NCBI GenBank assembly: GCA_964632485.1 | Contig: CAZWDO010000024.1 | Span: 1 to 53,644, forward strand | Length of the DNA stretch: 53,644 bases | Source of the DNA: an uncultured bacterium | GTDB lineage: Bacteria; JAGOEH01 | Direction of reading: 5' to 3' | Shown here: positions 45,855 through 53,644 of the stretch, one piece after another | Layout of the letters: every line of letters begins with the position of its first letter | Position numbering within the stretch: the stretch's first letter is position 1 | Notes under the pieces: generated by a model | What the model was told of the DNA's origin: nothing | The model's database searches: none | The model's input: only the letters and a program-made list of their open reading frames with translations | Made by a program: the position numbers and the translations under genes

Positions 45855-46289
45855 ATGTCAGGTCATAAAACAAAGGCTCTGGTTCAGCATGTCCGGGGAA
45901 TGACGTTTATCGGCAAGGCAAATTCAAATCATTGGGTCACAATGGATGCCGACAAAGAATTTAATGGGCAGGACGGCGGCGCCCGACCCATGGAATTGGT
46001 TTTGTTGGGACTCGGCGGATGTACGGCCATGGATGTTATTTCAATTCTGGAAAAGAAAAAAACTCAAATCACCGATTTCCGTATCGAATTAGAAGCCGAT
46101 CATGCCCCGCAATATCCCAAAGTCTTCACCCATATTACGCTGGTTTACTATTTCTATGGGAAAAATATTAAGGATGAGGACGTTAAACGGGCCATTGAGT
46201 TGTCGGAAACTAAATATTGCAGTGTTCAGGCGATGTTGCGTCAGAGTTGTTCCATTCAGACTCGTTTTGAAATTGTAAACCAAGGATAA
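45855..46289 (+). CDS. OsmC family protein (YhfA-like)
   Basis: RPMELVLLGLGGCT.MDV and LSETKYCSV. Confidence 0.9.
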   Translation: MSGHKTKALVQHVRGMTFIGKANSNHWVTMDADKEFNGQDGGARPMELVLLGLGGCTAMDVISILEKKKTQITDFRIELEADHAPQYPKVFTHITLVYYFYGKNIKDEDVKRAIELSETKYCSVQAMLRQSCSIQTRFEIVNQG

Positions 46290-46638
46290 TTTTACATTTG
46301 AACGGTTTATAACAACCGCAACTTTATAAACACCCCAGTTCGGGACCTTGATTTAAAATCGATGGTTTTAAATTTTTTCTCGTTCCGTCTGGGGTGATAC
46401 TCAATGTAATCATTTTTTAAAAAAAAAATATATTGACAGTAGAGATAAAACTTTTATATTATAATTATGTTATGCTTTTAGAATTAATTAAAATTACTTT
46501 GACTGCTCGATTGATAAATTAAGTTAAAAATTAAGCAATCAACGTCAAAGTGCTTTTTTTTGTTTGGCAAGCAATATAGAACCTCAAAATCTCCAGCGTA
46601 AGTTATTTTACCTAATATGCGCAGAAAAAAGGAAAACA

Positions 46639-48066
46639 ATGAAGGCAACACTGATTCTATGCATTTGTGTAACTGTATTGATACTTTATATCAATTGTAA
46701 AAACGCAAATTATTATCAGGAAAATTTGTTTAATTCCAAGCCTCATATTGAAGACAGCATTATTTACGCAGTGCCTCAATTTCCGAGGCTTTGCGATAAT
46801 ATGGAGATAGAGAAGAAATATGTGAATATTGGTGATTGTGAATTGTATTGCGAGATTGAAGGCGCAGGGACTCCTTTAGTGCTTATTCATGGGGGACCCG
46901 GTGGAACTCATCATTGTTTTCACCCCTGGCTTTCTCGGGCCAAAGATAAATTTAAAATTATATATTACGATCAACGGGGATGTGGGGTTTCAGATTTTAA
47001 AAGCGGTGAAGGATATTCATTTGAGCAAACAGTTGATGATCTGGAAAATCTGAGGAAAGCTTTAAAAATTGACAAATGGATCGTTTTAGGCCATTCGTTT
47101 GGTGGGGGTGTTGCTCAGTATTATACCATCAAATATCCCCAACATGTTATGGGACAGATTTTAGTGGGTTCGGTACCAATGATGAACAAGCCGGAACTCA
47201 ATGCCACGAATGAGAATTGGTTTTTAAATGAGCAGGAAAACCAAAAAATCAATGAAATAATCCAACTGATTTCTACTGGAAAACTTAATTATGCTCAATA
47301 TTTTTATAACAACGATATCAATGGCGGCTGGAAACGCCAGAATTTTTTAAAACCGGAGCCCAAACGGCAAGCTCAAATGGCCCTCTATGATATTGTTTTT
47401 GACAAAGCGTTTAGCACTGATTTTGATTTATATAGTTTTGAGCATGCGTTTGATAATTGTCCTGTTCCCACGTTAATTTGCGAAGGCAGGTATGATTCAA
47501 TTTGGTCAGCCGAAAAAATTCCCATGATGAAAAAAAATCACCCTCAAGCGAAATTTTTGTCCTTTGAAAAGTCAAGCCATAATATATATAGCGACGAGAC
47601 TGAATTATTTGTGAATACCATAGCTGAGTGGTCTGATACAATATCAATAATTGACAGTAATAAAATTACCGAGTGGAAAAATTACACACATAAAATATTA
47701 AGCGAACAGCTAAATCAGATTGCCAGTGGGAAATTGTTTGTTAAATTGATTAAAACAGAGGGAATGGCTTCAGCAAAAAAATTTTTTGAGGATTTTAAAA
47801 AAAATAATTCGGATAAAACCCTGTTTACAGAGCGCTCATTAAACGTATTAGCATATAGATATCTTGCTGATAATCAAATTGATTTAGCAATCGAATTATT
47901 TGAGTTGAATGCAAAAGAGTACCCTCAATCCTGGAATGTATATGATAGTTTGGGGGAAGCATATTTAAAAAAAGGAAATAAAGAAAAAGCTAAAACAAAT
48001 TATAATAAATCGGTTGAGCTCAATCCCGATAATATAAATGGAAAGAAAATTTTGATCGATCTTTAA
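46639..48066 (+). CDS. Secreted alpha/beta hydrolase (proline iminopeptidase-like) with C-terminal TPR
   Basis: HGGPG, YDQRGCG, GHSFGG nucleophile elbow, SSH, and TPR NVYDSLGEAY; signal peptide from MKATL. Confidence 0.85.
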   Translation: MKATLILCICVTVLILYINCKNANYYQENLFNSKPHIEDSIIYAVPQFPRLCDNMEIEKKYVNIGDCELYCEIEGAGTPLVLIHGGPGGTHHCFHPWLSRAKDKFKIIYYDQRGCGVSDFKSGEGYSFEQTVDDLENLRKALKIDKWIVLGHSFGGGVAQYYTIKYPQHVMGQILVGSVPMMNKPELNATNENWFLNEQENQKINEIIQLISTGKLNYAQYFYNNDINGGWKRQNFLKPEPKRQAQMALYDIVFDKAFSTDFDLYSFEHAFDNCPVPTLICEGRYDSIWSAEKIPMMKKNHPQAKFLSFEKSSHNIYSDETELFVNTIAEWSDTISIIDSNKITEWKNYTHKILSEQLNQIASGKLFVKLIKTEGMASAKKFFEDFKKNNSDKTLFTERSLNVLAYRYLADNQIDLAIELFELNAKEYPQSWNVYDSLGEAYLKKGNKEKAKTNYNKSVELNPDNINGKKILIDL

Positions 48067-48344
48067 ATGATATGTATCATGGGTATAGATGCGTATGGAA
48101 ACATCCGGATTATAACGGATTCCATGCGAATAGCCGCCATTCTCCGCAGTTGAAATCCTTATTCTGTTAATTATTTTACCAGAAAAAAAATCCTTCAGTG
48201 TCAATACGATATTGTTTTGCATCAGATTGCAGTTAAGCAAATTGTCTTTTCCCGGCAGTTCCTGTTATCCCCCAAATTTAAAATGTAATCAGTAATTCGC
48301 CATCCAATTATATTTCTTGAATATAAAAATATTTATAAATTATT

Positions 48345-48361
48345 CTGGCATGTGATATGCA
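48345..48361 (+). promoter_or_regulatory. Putative sigma54 promoter
   Basis: CTGGCATGTGATATGCA, i.e. GG-N10-GC. Confidence 0.5.
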
Positions 48362-48436
48362 TATTAAATTAACAGGTTGCCGGATTACTTCACCGGCTGG
48401 ATTGGAACTCAAAAAATTTAACCGTGGAGGTACATT

Positions 48437-48538
48437 ATGATTCGTAGTGAACCAATCATGCAAGAATTAGCATGTCAACGGGGGATGAGAAAGACATATT
48501 TTTCAATGCAATTTCAGAGGGGTGAGGGATGTGACTAA
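48437..48538 (+). CDS. Putative 33-aa small protein MIRSEPIMQELACQRGMRKTYFSMQFQRGEGCD
   Basis: GGAGG 6 nt upstream of the ATG; lies downstream of the sigma54-like motif. Confidence 0.35.
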   Translation: MIRSEPIMQELACQRGMRKTYFSMQFQRGEGCD

Positions 48539-48625
48539 TTATGTTGTCCGGTGCGAAAAAGGATGGTGTTGAAATGAGGGTTAATTATGAAAGTGAATTG
48601 TAAAAATGAAGAGAGGCGGTTTGAA

Positions 48626-48922
48626 ATGAATAAAGAGGTTAGATCCACTTTGATTTATTTATTTATAGTAGTTGTCGAGAGCGTTTTATTAATCATACCG
48701 ACGGGATGGGTATTGACGCATAGTAATATTTTTATTTCTAATAGCAATAATCCGAATGGTGTTTATGTCGATTCAAAAGGGGGATACCATGACCCGCAAG
48801 TTGAAGAAAAATATGGTTTAAAAAAGGATAAACCCATTCAGCCTATTAAACCCATCAACGCTGGTTATGATCCAAATCTGAGTGTTTTAACGGATGTAGT
48901 GAAATATAATAATGTGGATTGA
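48626..48922 (+). CDS. Hypothetical single-TM protein
   Basis: ORF with an N-terminal hydrophobic helix; GAGG upstream. Confidence 0.5.
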   Translation: MNKEVRSTLIYLFIVVVESVLLIIPTGWVLTHSNIFISNSNNPNGVYVDSKGGYHDPQVEEKYGLKKDKPIQPIKPINAGYDPNLSVLTDVVKYNNVD

Positions 48923-49331
48923 AACGTATTTTTATCAGGATTTCGCTAATGACTGATAACACCTGATAAAAACTGATTGTTGAGGCTTTTGAATTGGTTT
49001 TAGCTCTATGTCTTACAATTAATCGCGCGGTGGATAGATTCGACCCCACCCCACCGCTTGCGCAACTCATTGAAGCTATTTAAATTGACTTTGTTTTTTA
49101 ATGGAAGCATCCGAGTTAGTTATGTTGATATTGATAAATATTTAGACGCGTCAAAAGTTACCGCAATCATATAGATTGTCCAAAATAACGCTATACAGAA
49201 GGCTGGTGGGGACGCCTCACCGGCTTTTTTTATTCTTACTTAAAGTTCTACGTAGCAAAATAAAGATTGCACCAATGCAATTAAAAGCAATCCATCAAGG
49301 CAACAAAGTAGAAATTGATGAAAAATTCAGC

Positions 49332-49360
49332 TTGACATTTTTTTTTAAATATGTTATATT
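49332..49360 (+). promoter_or_regulatory. Sigma70-type promoter upstream of tRNA-Arg
   Basis: TTGACA-17 bp-TATATT with extended TG. Confidence 0.55.
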
Positions 49361-49599
49361 AGAGCTATGAATTACAACAAGAGATGGAATACAACAAATT
49401 ACCTGTCGTCTAATAAAGATTTGACCAAATAATGACCAAAGCAGATGGAAACAATGGAAGAGAAAAATTCAGCCAACTCATTGAATGGAATAAAGGTATA
49501 ATACTTTAATAATTTTGGTCATTTGTTTGCTCAGTATCAAATTTATTGGTTGCGCTTTGTCACGGATTGTGTTGGCGGAGAGCAAGTTAAATACCATTA

Positions 49600-49673
49600 G
49601 CGCCTGTAGCTCATTTGGATAGAGCGTCGGACTTCGAATCCGCAGGTGGGGGGTTCGAATCCCTCCAGGCGCG
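49600..49673 (+). tRNA. tRNA-Arg (anticodon TCG); CCA not encoded
   Basis: Acceptor stem GCGCCTG/CAGGCGC, D arm GCTC-ATTTGGATA-GAGC, anticodon loop CT-TCG-AA, T loop TTCGAAT. Confidence 0.95.
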
Positions 49674-50304
49674 TTCCGGTCAGCGCTGCCATGATCAGAA
49701 TCGGCCTGAGATGGGCCTTGTCCCCAATACAATTTTCCAACTTGGCTGTTAGTAAAAAATTAAAAAATGACTTGACATTCAAAATGGAATTGTTTTTTTT
49801 TTAATAAAATCTATAGTAAGCAAAAGTAGAATGATACATTGACCATGCGATAGCATTGTATAGTAATCAACATGGATTTTCACAAACTGAAATAACCGTA
49901 ATAGCGCTTTGATTAAGTTGATTAAATCACATTGTATTGTACTGCTTCAGATGAAGATGCAAAATTCACCCGCGGCTGTTGAACTAACGTAATTTCAGCA
50001 GCGCCTCGGTAATATTTTTTCCATCGGGCGGAAATACGAAAGCATTTTTGAGTAATTATTTATTTTTTTGATTGACTTTTTATTGAGAATTACTTAACAT
50101 GCATATTGAAAAATGTGTGTCACCAATATCTATCCGGGGTGATAACAGCCGTTTGATGGGCAAATTTATAGAATTCTACCAGGAAACTCCTTTGCTTTCT
50201 TTATTAGTACACCTGATCCCGCTGATGAACTGCGGCATGTTCCCGACACTGCGCACCGTAGAACATGCCAATGAAACCAATCTTTTCGAGACGGCTCATC
50301 ATGC

Positions 50305-50580
50305 CGCCCCAAGAAATATCTTTTTGAAGGATAAGATGGAGAAAAGTATTCCCCAACAAGTGTTGTTAATATTTTGAAGAAAGCATCATTAAAAGCTGGC
50401 ATTCGTAAAATTGTTACACCCCACATGTTGCGCCATAGTTTTGCAACGCGCCTACTGGAACAAGGAACTGATTTAAGGTATATTCAAGAATTATTAGGCC
50501 ATGAAAGCTCAAAAACGACAGAGATATATACTCATGTTTCCAAAAAAGCCATCAATAAGATCAAAAATCCGATAGATTAG
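50305..50580 (+). pseudogene. 5'-truncated tyrosine recombinase with an internal nonsense codon
   Basis: [19 protein letters not shown]...[25 protein letters not shown]....[11 protein letters not shown] at 50332-50334; no recognisable N-terminal half upstream. Confidence 0.9.
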
Positions 50581-50626
50581 TTTTTTGACTAAAAGGAGTA
50601 GAAATGATAAAAGAAAAATATAAACA

Positions 50627-50691
50627 ATTATTCTTATCCCTCCAATTTGGCTGTATAAGAACAATAACTATACACAGACGTTGTGTGGCAT
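50627..50691 (+). other. attI-like primary recombination site (inferred)
   Basis: Inverted repeat ATTATTCTTAT (50627-50637) / ATAAGAACAAT (50655-50665) around CCAATTTGG, then the first core C-GTT-GTGTGG-CAT at 50679-50691 with no attC-like arm upstream. Confidence 0.55.
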
Positions 50692-50946
50692 ATAAACAAA
50701 CTACCAATGGGAAATATTTTATTAAATAGAATTAGAAAAACAAAGGAGGAATAAATATAACAAACTAAAATAAGTACGAATTTTATCTGACAATTGAGAT
50801 TTTCTTTTTTATTCTTTCAGTTATTATTTTCGTTTTTGCTGATGGATTAAAACGATGGTATAGCAAAGGTTTCTTTTTAATTATGGGAGTGAGTAGTTAT
50901 AATATGATTATCAAAAACAAAACAATACTTATTAATTGCCAACTAC

Positions 50947-51354
50947 ATGTATTTTAACATTAAAATGAAACAAGACAATATAGGAACTAAACATGATAAA
51001 TATGCCCCTTATTGGGCTGCAACACTCGTTGTACTTGTAATATTAGGATTGTCAACAATTTGGATTGACTTGGGAAATTTCTGGAAAGGCTATGTGTTAG
51101 ATATGACTGGACCAGCTTGGAATTATATTTTCTTTAGAGGTCTGAATACAGCATATTCGGACAATGCCTGGAGACGCTTTTTTACTCCAAACAGAACCTT
51201 AGCAATATTTATAACAGTATGTATTGGAATTGAAACAATGCAGTACTTTAAAATCTATAATTCGACCTTTGACTTGTGGGATTTGCTCGCTTATATCTCA
51301 ATACTTGTTCCACTATATTTAATTGATTGTGGATTGAATAAAAAGGACAAATGA
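50947..51354 (+). CDS. Cassette 1: membrane protein (DUF2809/VanZ-like)
   Basis: Hydrophobic helices and an E..QY...TFD..DLLAY motif; stop 4 nt before the inverse core. Confidence 0.7.
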   Translation: MYFNIKMKQDNIGTKHDKYAPYWAATLVVLVILGLSTIWIDLGNFWKGYVLDMTGPAWNYIFFRGLNTAYSDNAWRRFFTPNRTLAIFITVCIGIETMQYFKIYNSTFDLWDLLAYISILVPLYLIDCGLNKKDK

Positions 51355-51358
51355 ATAC

Positions 51359-51498
51359 GCCACACAACATTTTGTATAAGTAATGGCAGGTAAAGTACTA
51401 AATATCAAGTTTTGTAGCCCATTCAAACTGCGTAGCGGTTTGACAAGAAAGTACCACGCAATCTGCCACTACTCATACAATTTACCGTTCAGTGCAAT
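51359..51498 (+). repeat. attC-like site 1
   Basis: GCCACACAAC; arms TTGTATAAGTAATGGCAG (51372-51389) / CTGCCACTACTCATACAA (51463-51480); GTT at 51487. Confidence 0.85.
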
Positions 51499-51619
51499 CC
51501 GCTCCGCTTCTTGCACTGAACGCGCGGGCGGTTGGCGCGGTGCAGCCGCAAAGCGGACTGCACCGAACAAACCGGTTAACGCAATAGGGTGTAACCCGAC
51601 TGCGCCAACCGCCCGCGCG
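51488..51619 (+). mobile_element. Cassette 2: 132-bp gene-less GC-rich cassette with a perfect-stem attC-like site (51511-51630)
   Basis: GTTCAGTGCAA (51487-51497) / TTGCACTGAAC (51511-51521); perfect 20-bp inverted repeat 51519-51538 / 51602-51621. Confidence 0.75.
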
Positions 51620-51669
51620 TTGTGCCGCATGCTAAGAAAACAGAGTATCACATAAAAATAGGAGGAATA

Positions 51670-52215
51670 ATGAAAATTACATTGATTATTATAATTGCGA
51701 TTTTAGTAATATTTGCGATTGCATTTATTTACTATGGAGGGTTGATTAAAGTAAACTGTCGGATTGAGAAACAAGGAGGCGAAAAACTGGTTTATAAACA
51801 AATGACTGGTGATTATGCAAAAAGTGCAAAACTAATGGATGAGATTTACTATTCATTACTTAATAACTATGCTATTGATACCTACAAAGGGTTTGGCATT
51901 TACTATGACAACCCGAAATTAGTGGAAAAAAGCAAGTTGCGTTCAGAAATTGGTTGTATTGTCGAAGATAAGGACAGTTCCAAATTTACACAGATTGCTG
52001 AAGGGTTAAGTACAAAAACATTTCCAGAAAGGTCATATATAGTTGCCGAATTCCCAAGTAAAGGGAAATTATCCATTTTGTTTGGCATAATGAAAGTTTA
52101 TCCTGCAATTGAAAAATTTGTGGAAAATAATGGGTATAAGAATGAAGGTTCTGTAATGGAAATATACGATGTCCCAAATAAGAAAATAGTTTATAGAAAA
52201 GAAATAATTGAGTAA
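51670..52215 (+). CDS. Cassette 3 gene A: membrane-anchored GyrI-like small-molecule-binding domain protein
   Basis: N-terminal TM helix; GDY, FGIYYDNP...LRSEIGC, KVYP and MEIY; GGAGG ribosome-binding site. Confidence 0.75.
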   Translation: MKITLIIIIAILVIFAIAFIYYGGLIKVNCRIEKQGGEKLVYKQMTGDYAKSAKLMDEIYYSLLNNYAIDTYKGFGIYYDNPKLVEKSKLRSEIGCIVEDKDSSKFTQIAEGLSTKTFPERSYIVAEFPSKGKLSILFGIMKVYPAIEKFVENNGYKNEGSVMEIYDVPNKKIVYRKEIIE

Positions 52216-52220
52216 ATTGC

Positions 52221-53103
52221 ATGGATACAGTTGTTAGTGAAAATAATATAACAGAAATAATCTGCACAAGTGCACTGAATAAATTAAAGAAAAAAATTCC
52301 TTATGGTTGGGATTTGAATATATACAGGGGGTGCAGTCATAATTGCAAATATTGTTATGCGATTTATTCTCACGAATTTATAGGAGAACAAGACTTTTCT
52401 AAAGTTTTTGCCAAGACAAATGTTGCTGAACAGCTTGATAAAGAATTAAGTAATCCAAAATGGAATAGAGAAATTATTAATATTGGTGGTGTTACAGATA
52501 GTTACCAAATAGCTGAGGAGAAAATGAAAATTATGCCTCAAGTTTTGAAGGTTTTAATTAAACATAAAACACCAGCTATCATTTCAACCAAATCAGATTT
52601 AATTCTTCGAGATTTTGACTTAATTGCTGAATTGTCAAAACTTACTTATGTTAATGTTGCTTCAACAATAACGACAATGAACGAAGATGACCGTAAAAAG
52701 ATTGAGCCTTATGGTAGCCCGAGTATACAGAGGTTTAATATGTTGAAAGAGTTTAGAAAAACAAATGCCTCTGTTGGATTACATACAATGCCAATAATTC
52801 CCTGCATAACAGATAGTTATTCAAACATTGAAAGTTTATGTTCAGAAGCAAGGGCTTCAAACGTTCATTATATGCTACCTGGTACTTTGTATTTGCGAGG
52901 AGCAGGTCAAGATATTCTTTGAATTTATAAAAGACCATTATCCAGATAAGTACGAGAATATGAAAATTCTATATAAAACAGGAGGAGCAGATAAATCATA
53001 TAAAGGAAAATTGTATAACGAGATTGTTAATCCATTACGTGAGAAATACGGAATTTCAAATAGCTATATTAAACTATTGAAAGAAAAAATACATAAAGAT
53101 TGA
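52221..53103 (+). pseudogene. Cassette 3 gene B: radical SAM protein (SPL-like), frameshifted near 52900
   Basis: LNIYRGCSHNCKYCYA, GGVTDSYQ and ISTKS; coding continues in another frame (...FFEFIKDHYP...KEKIHKD) to TGA 53103, just before the inverse core. Confidence 0.8.
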
Positions 53104-53113
53104 AAAAGCACGA

Positions 53114-53251
53114 CGGCACAACATCGTATATAAAACATTTGTCAGTCAGTACGTTATCAAGCATTTCAGCCCGTATCAAAAGTAGTTGTAACTTGACAGG
53201 AAAGTGCTTCGAAATGCCAAACGTTTCATATACGTATTCGTTGTAGCTAAT
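53114..53251 (+). repeat. attC-like site 3, homologous to site 1
   Basis: CGGCACAAC; arms CGTATATAAAACATTTGTCA (53125-53144) / TGCCAAACGTTTCATATACG (53215-53234); GTT at 53240. Confidence 0.85.
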
Positions 53252-53344
53252 GCCAAGAAAAGAGTCGTGCGGAGAAAAACAATGCTATTCCCATTAAATA
53301 TGCGGATAATAATTTATATATTTACCGCAAAAAGATAAAAGTTC

Positions 53345-53569
53345 ATGGCAAAATTCATCTATGAATACGACAAATGGCCTGAATTCATGTGGGATGACAA
53401 GAAAATTATTGTGAATTTAGGTAAAGTTCGACATCTACAAGGAAAGATTTTCGGACAGATGAGCGCGCTCGGATTTTCAATAAAAGAAGAAACATTATTA
53501 TCGACTTTAACCCAACTTTTGCAAGTGGCGATTTTATTTAAATTTGTTATAACCGTATATATAATATAG
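53345..53569 (+). pseudogene. Cassette 4: N-terminal fragment of a Fic-family (DUF4172-type) protein
   Basis: IYE...WP.F.WD...L.KVR..QGK..G.M..LGF...E..L.TLT; family resemblance stops near 53513 and no Fic domain follows. Confidence 0.7.
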
Positions 53570-53644
53570 TTTTAAGACTTTTATGTCAAGAAATAGATAT
53601 ATTTTTGACCTAATTGTCAAAAATTAAGTATTTGCTATTCAATA

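Follow-up and report, generated by a model that had tools for sequence, protein, structure and literature searches.

A gene-less 132-bp mini-cassette, probably selfish and little more than its own recombination site, in an integron-like array of an uncultured bacterium

What is a GC-rich palindrome of 132 bp, holding no gene, doing in an AT-rich array of gene cassettes? The question was raised by positions 51488..51619 (+) of contig CAZWDO010000024.1 (assembly GCA_964632485.1), from an uncultured bacterium of the GTDB lineage JAGOEH01. The window, that is, the whole stretch of DNA analysed, is this entire contig of 53,644 nucleotides (nt), one of the 66 contigs of a metagenome bin of 4.45 Mb that is 98% complete. 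Labels such as C1, C2, C5, C6, C12 and C33 denote other contigs of the same genome (G000), and labels such as L017 and L148 denote extracted loci; the related metagenome arrays examined total 212 kb. With moderate confidence, we propose that the unit is a complete gene-less cassette of an integron-like gene-capture system: minimal, probably selfish, made up of little more than its own recombination site, and moved as a single-stranded dumbbell.

The unit is built of two adjoining hairpins. The small one (51487..51521) is formed by the core GTTCAGTGCAA, a 13-nt loop (51498-51510) and the inverse core TTGCACTGAAC; taken as an inverted repeat, it has 12-nt arms (51486-51497 and 51511-51522) that are 100% complementary and are separated by the 13 nt TCCGCTCCGCTTC. 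The large GC-rich hairpin (51519..51621) has perfect 20-bp arms (51519-51538/51602-51621), 80% GC, around a branched inner domain of 63 nt (51539-51601). Its arms can be extended to 23 nt (51519-51541 and 51599-51621) at 96% complementarity, 20 nt of which are perfect. The sub-hairpins GGTGCAG-CCGC-AAA-GCGG-A-CTGCACC and GGGT-GTA-ACCC both appeared in the minimum-energy folds, and AACCGGTT is present in the unit sequence. When 51484-51630 was folded as single-stranded DNA, the + strand gave −53.5 kcal/mol (z-score −8.0) and the − strand −52.3 kcal/mol (z-score −6.7), and none of 200 shuffles folded as well on either strand. The two strands of the unit fold equally well. Its GC content is 0.65; the remaining array has 0.31, and the recombination sites of the two flanking cassettes (sites 1 and 3) have 0.39.

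We then computed the fold of the circle that results when 51619 is joined to 51488. This circle contains an uninterrupted, perfect helix of 28 bp (10 + 18), made of Watson-Crick pairs only, with the 13-nt loop and the 63-nt inner domain; 102-104 of its 132 nt are paired, at −54.4 and −53.3 kcal/mol for the two strands, and the same computation on 51489-51619 gave z-scores of −9.8 and −8.7 against mononucleotide shuffles. Only 13 nt of the unit lie outside the helix and the inner domain. The small hairpin would supply the recombinase R-box part of this helix. In the linear DNA the helix is present in permuted form, the right arm being cut at GTT and its missing 8 bases lying 13 nt upstream of the left arm; this is therefore the circular permutation expected when a circle is inserted by site-specific recombination at G/TT. 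A preliminary description, made from the letters of the window alone, had reported the 13-nt loop, the 20-bp GC-rich repeat, the sub-hairpins, the 28-bp stem of the circle and the GC-rich island within an AT-rich array. All of these were recovered at the places it gave, and folding of both strands, which it had suggested as a check, yielded structures far better than shuffles.

The architecture is rare in this genome. When all 4.45 Mb were scanned for a small hairpin (perfect, 8 bp or more) directly adjoined by a stem (perfect, 12 bp or more), two places only were returned, 51488-51619 and one other, both within cassette arrays. Perfect stems of at least 14 bp number 11 in the genome and 2 in the 212 kb of related metagenome arrays, and among these the window unit and its relative on C6 (see below) are the only GC-rich ones. 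The unit has no credible open reading frame (ORF): the two that cross it, 51383-51655 (+) and 51469-51651 (−), match no Pfam family, the former beginning inside site 1 and the latter running antisense through the palindrome. Sequence scanning of 51487-51621 detected no promoter- or terminator-like site and no T-run terminator (in the region as a whole, 12 promoter-like sites were found against 14.7 expected), and an Rfam scan of 46000-53644 returned only a tRNA, with no family for the unit.

Is such a unit a cassette? In this array, a cassette begins with the inverse core of its own site in reverse complement. The start of cassette 1, GTTGTGTGGC, is the reverse complement of GCCACACAAC, which opens its own site, and GTTGTGCCG, with which cassette 3 starts, has its reverse complement, CGGCACAAC, at 53113. 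The match spans 10 bp in cassette 1, 9 bp in cassette 3, 9 bp in a cassette on C48 and 11 bp in the mini-cassette; here the 10 bases behind the G exactly pair with an inverse core just 13 nt downstream. An 8-base complement of this kind was found in four of the five cassettes tested; the cassette on C34 has none within 4 kb.

The junctions were examined by comparing positions 50300-53300 with assembled contigs (not raw reads) of four public metagenome runs, X1 to X4, of which X1 is the likely source of the genome. An independent X1 assembly covers 50718-53214 with 0 differences to the window. In contigs of the other runs, the sequence context switches within 1-3 bases of 50680/50681, 51487/51488 and 51619/51620. 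Thus, one X3 contig carries cassette 1 from 50679 onward behind other letters, eight X3 contigs with ends like that of site 1 diverge behind 51489, and contigs of X2 and X4 match cassette 3 from 51618 with other letters before it. The unit itself recurs in a 1140-nt X3 contig that matches 51486-51639 with 4 differences and is unlike the window in its remainder, and a near copy is present in a 1129-nt X1 contig that matches 51513-51621 with 7 differences and diverges after that. Cassette 3 was also found with the same leader, GTTGTGCCGCATGC, after a different site in metagenome loci L148 and L149, and with a similar leader in L150. Both ends of the unit are real recombination junctions, and they are used independently.

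If the unit is mobile, relatives may be expected. A second intact member, of 135 bp, lies at C6:245152-245286. It has the core GTTGTCCAAC, a 9-bp hairpin with a 12-nt loop, a perfect 19-bp GC stem and a 67-nt inner domain, and in its circle, too, 9 + 19 bp make up a perfect helix of 28 bp; the folds have z-scores of −7.7 and −7.8. As the second cassette of its array, it comes directly after an AT-rich site, 1.3 kb downstream of a full-length recombinase gene; both intact members thus stand in second position, right after the first cassette of an array. The two share the block GGGCGG(G)TTGGCG, and the loop motif CGCTNCGCT is common to the window unit and the copies on C6, C1, C5 and C12. In a MAFFT alignment of the two, both partners differ in 5 of the 22 shared pairs and all cells (100%) are paired, and in an ungapped register 10 of the 27 helix positions differ while both helices are perfect. 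The arms are unconserved between members except for the distal GGTTGGCG block. The constant helix length of 28 bp may be the length that a recombinase pair covers on a core site.

A covariance model (R1) was built from the window unit and the C6 member and run over 151 genomes. Matches were obtained in one of them, the genome of the window, where the search, which the preliminary description had proposed, brought out five decayed or truncated copies besides the two intact members. At C1:436725-436864 (114.9 bits) there is a full-length copy whose stems have mismatches and whose ends are essentially the same. In the copy at C33:897-1045 (66.8 bits), the large hairpin directly continues the final codons of a recombinase 3′ fragment; the small hairpin is missing, an internal part is duplicated in tandem, and a cassette-like gene comes next. 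The C5 copy (29 bits) is a 5′ fragment of the first 40 nt only, the C12 copy is a fragment behind ...AAACCGTT, and the C2 copy is AT-rich and decayed, lies behind ...CTCGTT and has an inner domain homologous to that of the C6 member. The C6 member is identical to the C1 copy at 119 of 134 positions and to the C33 copy at 99 of 107. Immediately upstream of four or five of the seven copies there is either a ...GTT junction or a recombinase gene, whole or as a fragment. C1, and perhaps C5, lie outside a recognisable array; no target duplication beyond the crossover TT was seen by eye in the flanks. No gene-bearing cassette ending in an intact family member was found in the genome or in the 212 kb of related arrays.

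Judged from their sequences, these copies are a mobile family at several stages of decay. With two of them intact and five decayed, an element that spread without a gene and is decaying is favoured over a one-off deletion. The proposal of a minimal selfish cassette, also made in the preliminary description, can now be divided. Its cassette half is carried by the own-core complement and the junction switches; the parasite half is borne out in part, by the multi-copy family and by the lack of any gene-bearing member. The AT-rich hairpins upstream of the C5, C12 and C2 copies were considered as array sites and rejected, as they fold no better than shuffles. A comparison with an empty site for the C1 copy gave nothing, since the sole family relative keeps one flanking gene without the synteny.

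Which enzyme would move the family? The best candidate is a tyrosine recombinase of 280 amino acids encoded at C6:243033-243875 (L017 2034-2876), which heads the C6 array, is co-oriented with it and is followed by the attI-like junction ...TATACAAACGTT. Of all proteins of the genome it fits the integron-integrase model (TIGR02249) best, and it is the sole full-length recombinase found heading such an array. No protein of the genome reaches the cut-off of TIGR02249: the C6 recombinase scores 231.3 bits against 265, and its match falls into two stretches that skip model positions 180-240. It lies just over the cut-off of a XerA/integron-integrase model, and its nearest solved structures are XerA and XerC, the best being XerA 4a8e (E-value 3.5e-43). 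Aligned with VchIntIA (2a3v), residues 7-199 match 11-206 and residues 199-271 match 247-319, with about 40 residues missing; by this alignment, the missing region is the I2 region. The system is thus integron-like in its working and fails two defining features of integrons, I2 and extrahelical bases. In the window, the array is headed by a C-terminal remnant of 68 amino acids (50374..50580, +), co-oriented with the cassettes, which scores 93.5 bits with TIGR02249 and 90.1 bits with XerD, both far under the cut-offs because just the last quarter of the protein is present. A whole-genome profile scan places the remnant at 50362-50580, with one TAG inside.

The resident AT-rich sites were analysed for comparison with the unit. 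The family comprises 7 sites in the genome, and its profile matches the window at 51358-51499 and 53107-53253. Nine site sequences, taken from the window, C48, C30, C43, C34, C6 and metagenome loci L148 and L160, were aligned, and 15 of the 19 predicted pairs showed a compensatory change; these are real folded sites. On the bottom strand they have two G·T wobbles with a spacing of 5 bp, one conserved in 8 and the other in all 9 of the 9 sequences; the same positions are A·C mismatches on the top strand. The preliminary description was right that the unit is unrelated in sequence to sites 1 and 3, as the nhmmer profile of the family matches those sites and misses 51511-51621. It was mistaken in crediting sites 1 and 3 with a bulge that the unit lacks, for their folds contain no extrahelical or bulged base in the long stem. 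The real differences of sites 1 and 3 from the unit are an unpaired spacer and the two bottom-strand G·T wobbles. On the alignment, the two wobbles may set strand choice where the recombinase has no I2 domain.

From these elements a mechanism can be put forward. The tyrosine recombinase of the system would cut twice at G/TT, in the upstream site (51487/51488) and in that of the unit itself (51619/51620), and excision would release a 132-nt single strand that folds as a dumbbell. A double-stranded circle of 132 bp is sterically unlikely, and the single-stranded dumbbell is therefore a plausible intermediate; by the same argument, the I2-less system, too, may be supposed to act on folded single strands. 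The 28-bp helix of the dumbbell would mimic a core site of double-stranded DNA, its parts being an R arm (about 10 bp) by the 13-nt loop, a central region and the conserved GGTTGGCG arm. The dumbbell would then re-insert at another G/TT junction, either an attI-like or an attC-like site, occasionally a secondary site. As a gene-less unit it would be under no selection for orientation or for strand-marking features, and loss of the unpaired spacer and the two G·T wobbles would be expected because there is no gene to orient. In this way the unit could have turned into a GC-rich, perfectly paired and easily folding site, as would be expected of a selfish passenger of the recombinase. We suggest only tentatively, as a doubtful extension of the proposal, that these units of 132-135 nt are among the smallest self-contained mobile DNAs, each a single-stranded dumbbell and 28-bp core-site mimic that parasitizes a Xer-like, I2-less cassette recombinase.

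Several observations weigh against a selfish cassette of this kind. The unit lacks every unpaired feature of the resident sites, so that its acceptance by the same recombinase is something we infer. The C6 member ends at A/TT with an AAT inverse core, not at G/TT with AAC. The C1 copy lies between ordinary chromosomal genes with no recognisable array site adjoining, which would fit a MITE-like element (miniature inverted-repeat transposable element) with a broader target. The C12 and C2 matches are insignificant by the covariance model (E-values 0.89 and 1.6) and rest on visible similarity. At the right junction, the match of the X3 contig continues for 20 nt, to 51639; this may be due to a related leader of the downstream cassette. 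No joint skipping 51488-51619 or joining 51619 to 51488 was present in the X1 to X4 contigs, which is uninformative, as contigs drop rare variants. The family was absent from the 150 other genomes by covariance model, BLAST against plasmids gave no match to the unit, the 11 loci found in viral contigs had stems of at most 12 bp, and a metagenome pattern scan for the loop motif with both arms gave 0 matches.

Other searches agree with a narrow distribution. BLAST of the unit against its own genome returned the self-match only, and against 60 other genomes just chance matches of 28-36 nt in 2 genomes. A pattern scan of genome contigs gave at least 120 loci, mostly GC-rich chance matches; in the 121 matches examined, stems of at least 17 bp were present in 5 and an adjoining small hairpin in 0, and the 562,332 bases of pattern-scan loci contained 0 architecture matches. 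Two Verrucomicrobiota loci (L089 and L127) with a GCGGCGGGTTGGCG stem scored 24-31 bits with the covariance model and were rejected, as they had been selected by that very motif and are without the architecture. A metagenome scan for the GyrI-like cassette (cassette 3) gave 30 loci, with 0 family members. Members are known only from the genome of the window and from the two runs that hold the unit or a near copy, and the motif is confined to one genome of a phylum that is represented by 3 genomes only in the collection searched.

We considered whether the unit might instead be maintained by the host, either as a stable 3′ RNA hairpin that stabilises or insulates the transcript of the first cassette, or as a DNA element that locks away the R′ box upstream and thereby controls how cassette 1 is excised. 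The second position shared by both intact members, directly after a first cassette, would suit either role. So would the folding of the surroundings: the RNA fold of 51350-51640 reaches −126.6 kcal/mol (z-score −8.8), and a composite fold of the single strand has the upstream R′ perfectly paired to the inverse core of the unit, and the inverse core of site 1 itself paired to the GTT at 51619 instead. A maintained functional part, however, would not be expected to be decayed, truncated or outside arrays in five of seven copies, and the unit has neither a T-run terminator nor a promoter-like site nor an Rfam family. We regard a host function as unlikely, at roughly one chance in several.

Improbable as well is an origin by deletion, in which internal loss of the gene would have reduced an ordinary cassette to its site, the unit representing a second, GC-rich family of sites without any selfish spread. 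The hairpin does sit where a cassette site would sit, with AAC...GTT ends, and truncated derivatives do exist, as the C33 copy without its small hairpin and the fragments on C5 and C12 attest. Against this, the two intact members, which differ at 10 of 27 helix positions, share the architecture, the motif in the 12-13-nt loop and the 28-bp helix; a deletion would therefore predate their divergence, and the gene-less form would have spread afterwards. Nor does an intact member end any gene-bearing cassette in the genome and the 212 kb of related arrays.

An ordinary repetitive extragenic palindromic (REP)- or MITE-like repeat, moved by another enzyme that prefers hairpins or GTT-containing targets, we hold to be very unlikely. 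MITEs, REPs and palindrome-associated transposable elements (PATEs) resemble the family in being about 130 bp long, non-coding, strongly self-complementary and multi-copy with decayed members, and the C1 copy among ordinary genes would be at home there. They differ from it in that its ends are not simple terminal inverted repeats with a target duplication but a permutation about G/TT, and most copies (four or five of seven) lie at cassette junctions, directly after ...GTT or a recombinase gene or fragment. The preliminary description had held that copies outside arrays, with different boundaries, would speak for such an element. The C1 copy lies outside an array, as that idea has it, but its ends are essentially the same. 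PF01797, the Y1/HUH transposase family, had 0 matches in the 98%-complete genome, whereas the control was positive in 6 of 14 genomes; with no such enzyme present to move REP- or IS200-type hairpins, we count this result for the cassette. Finally, an assembly or binning artefact, by which a foreign GC-rich fragment was joined into an AT-rich contig (GC of 0.65 in an array of 0.31, in a metagenome bin of 66 contigs), can be dismissed as highly improbable, as the X1 assembly spans the region with 0 differences, an X3 contig holds the unit with 4 and homologous copies are present on six other contigs.

The remainder of the array fits the gene-less cassette into an orderly row. Behind the recombinase remnant lies a conserved attI-like site ending in ...ACGTT (50607..50682, +), with copies at C48:1604-1679 (94.7% identity) and C34:22396-22467 (93.1%); the three alignments part right after GTT. 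Two of the three genomic copies lack a recombinase gene upstream, where they have another 160 nt in common; from the sequence comparison, these may be orphaned or rearranged platforms. Cassette 1 (50681..51487, +) contains an ORF at 50947-51354 (135 amino acids, no family) and AT-rich site 1 at about 51359-51489. Cassette 3 (51620..53240, +) carries, by Pfam and NCBIfam, a GyrI-like/Cass2-like gene (51670-52215) and a radical-SAM gene split into 52221-52922 and 52828-53103, and ends in AT-rich site 3 at about 53113-53242. The two radical-SAM frames overlap, and X2 and X4 contigs have two extra letters after 52904; the window copy thus appears to be frameshifted.

Further observations concern the surroundings and the recombinase. 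A tRNA-Arg(TCG) gene is located at 49600-49673, about 700 bp 5′ of the recombinase remnant, and the interval 49674-50360 between them contains short repeats common to contigs C2, C41, C11, C17, C28 and C35. About one fifth of the sampled words of 50300-53300 occurred in 16 further runs, X5 to X20, from wastewater, bioreactor, digester, landfill, manure and microbialite samples. Truncated recombinase paralogues are found at 50374-50580 of the window, C34:25838-26068, C9:143880-144077 and C33 at about 865-920. On C33, a perfect 14-bp AT-rich hairpin (807-859) stands before the 3′ part of a recombinase gene to which the GC-rich hairpin copy is joined, and on its far side lies a gene that we take to be RhuM-like. 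Locus L143 (G009:C80) encodes a 50%-identical homologue of the C6 recombinase followed by an ORF with a zinc-finger N-terminus, which presumably resembles the transposases of the IS91 family; relatives of the C6 recombinase may therefore not all head cassette arrays.

How does the system compare with known ones? As in integrons, the cassettes here end in folded imperfect inverted repeats with ...AAC and GTT... ends. Canonical attC sites share with the unit the ...AAC inverse core, the GTT... core, the G/TT crossover, a hairpin with a variable end and cassettes that begin with the complement of their own inverse core. Strand choice in canonical attC sites depends on extrahelical bases, an unpaired central spacer and the variable terminal structure (PMC5027507), and the extrahelical bases are read by the I2 domain of IntI (PMC4792948). 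The mini-cassette differs in having neither extrahelical bases nor an unpaired spacer, and the C6 recombinase in having no I2. Likeness to Xer core sites (dif and archaeal XerA sites) is seen in the recombinase, whose nearest solved structures are XerA and XerC, and in the length of the perfect helix of both intact members. The dif site is 28 bp long (11 + 6 + 11); in the mini-cassette, by contrast, the 28 bp would be formed by one folded strand.

Gene-less cassettes as such are not new to integrons. Those of Vibrio superintegrons and Treponema integrons are likewise bounded by recombination sites, without a credible ORF and paralogous within a genome; those of Vibrio have already been proposed to be selfish (PMC1382264), and gene-less cassettes are also treated in PMC11014356 and PMC6557892. 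The former gives most tested Vibrio gene-less cassettes as acting as promoters, with size-matched control fragments of 450-650 bp. In comparison with the Vibrio cassettes, the unit described here has 13 nt outside its site, no promoter-like site, and a site remodelled into a perfect GC-rich helix. Literature searches, whose coverage excluded supplementary tables of cassette sequences, yielded no account of either site-only cassettes or cassette arrays lacking I2. The site-only hairpin form thus appears to be a new variant among the gene-less cassettes already known.

If the proposal is true, a lineage of recombinases recombines fully paired hairpins that have neither extrahelical bases nor an unpaired spacer. 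A site-only cassette would be a natural minimal substrate, as its 132 nt must hold everything that the recombinase needs, and setting it beside the resident sites, with their spacer and two G·T wobbles, poses the question of how a strand is chosen without an I2 domain. This would bear on the co-evolution of attC sites and the I2 domain, raised as an open question in PMC4792948. Integron-type systems are usually seen as stores of genes that serve the host. The family described here would be a clear parasite of the cassette machinery, and cassette systems would then have non-coding parasites of their own, which have shed the strand-marking features for lack of a gene.

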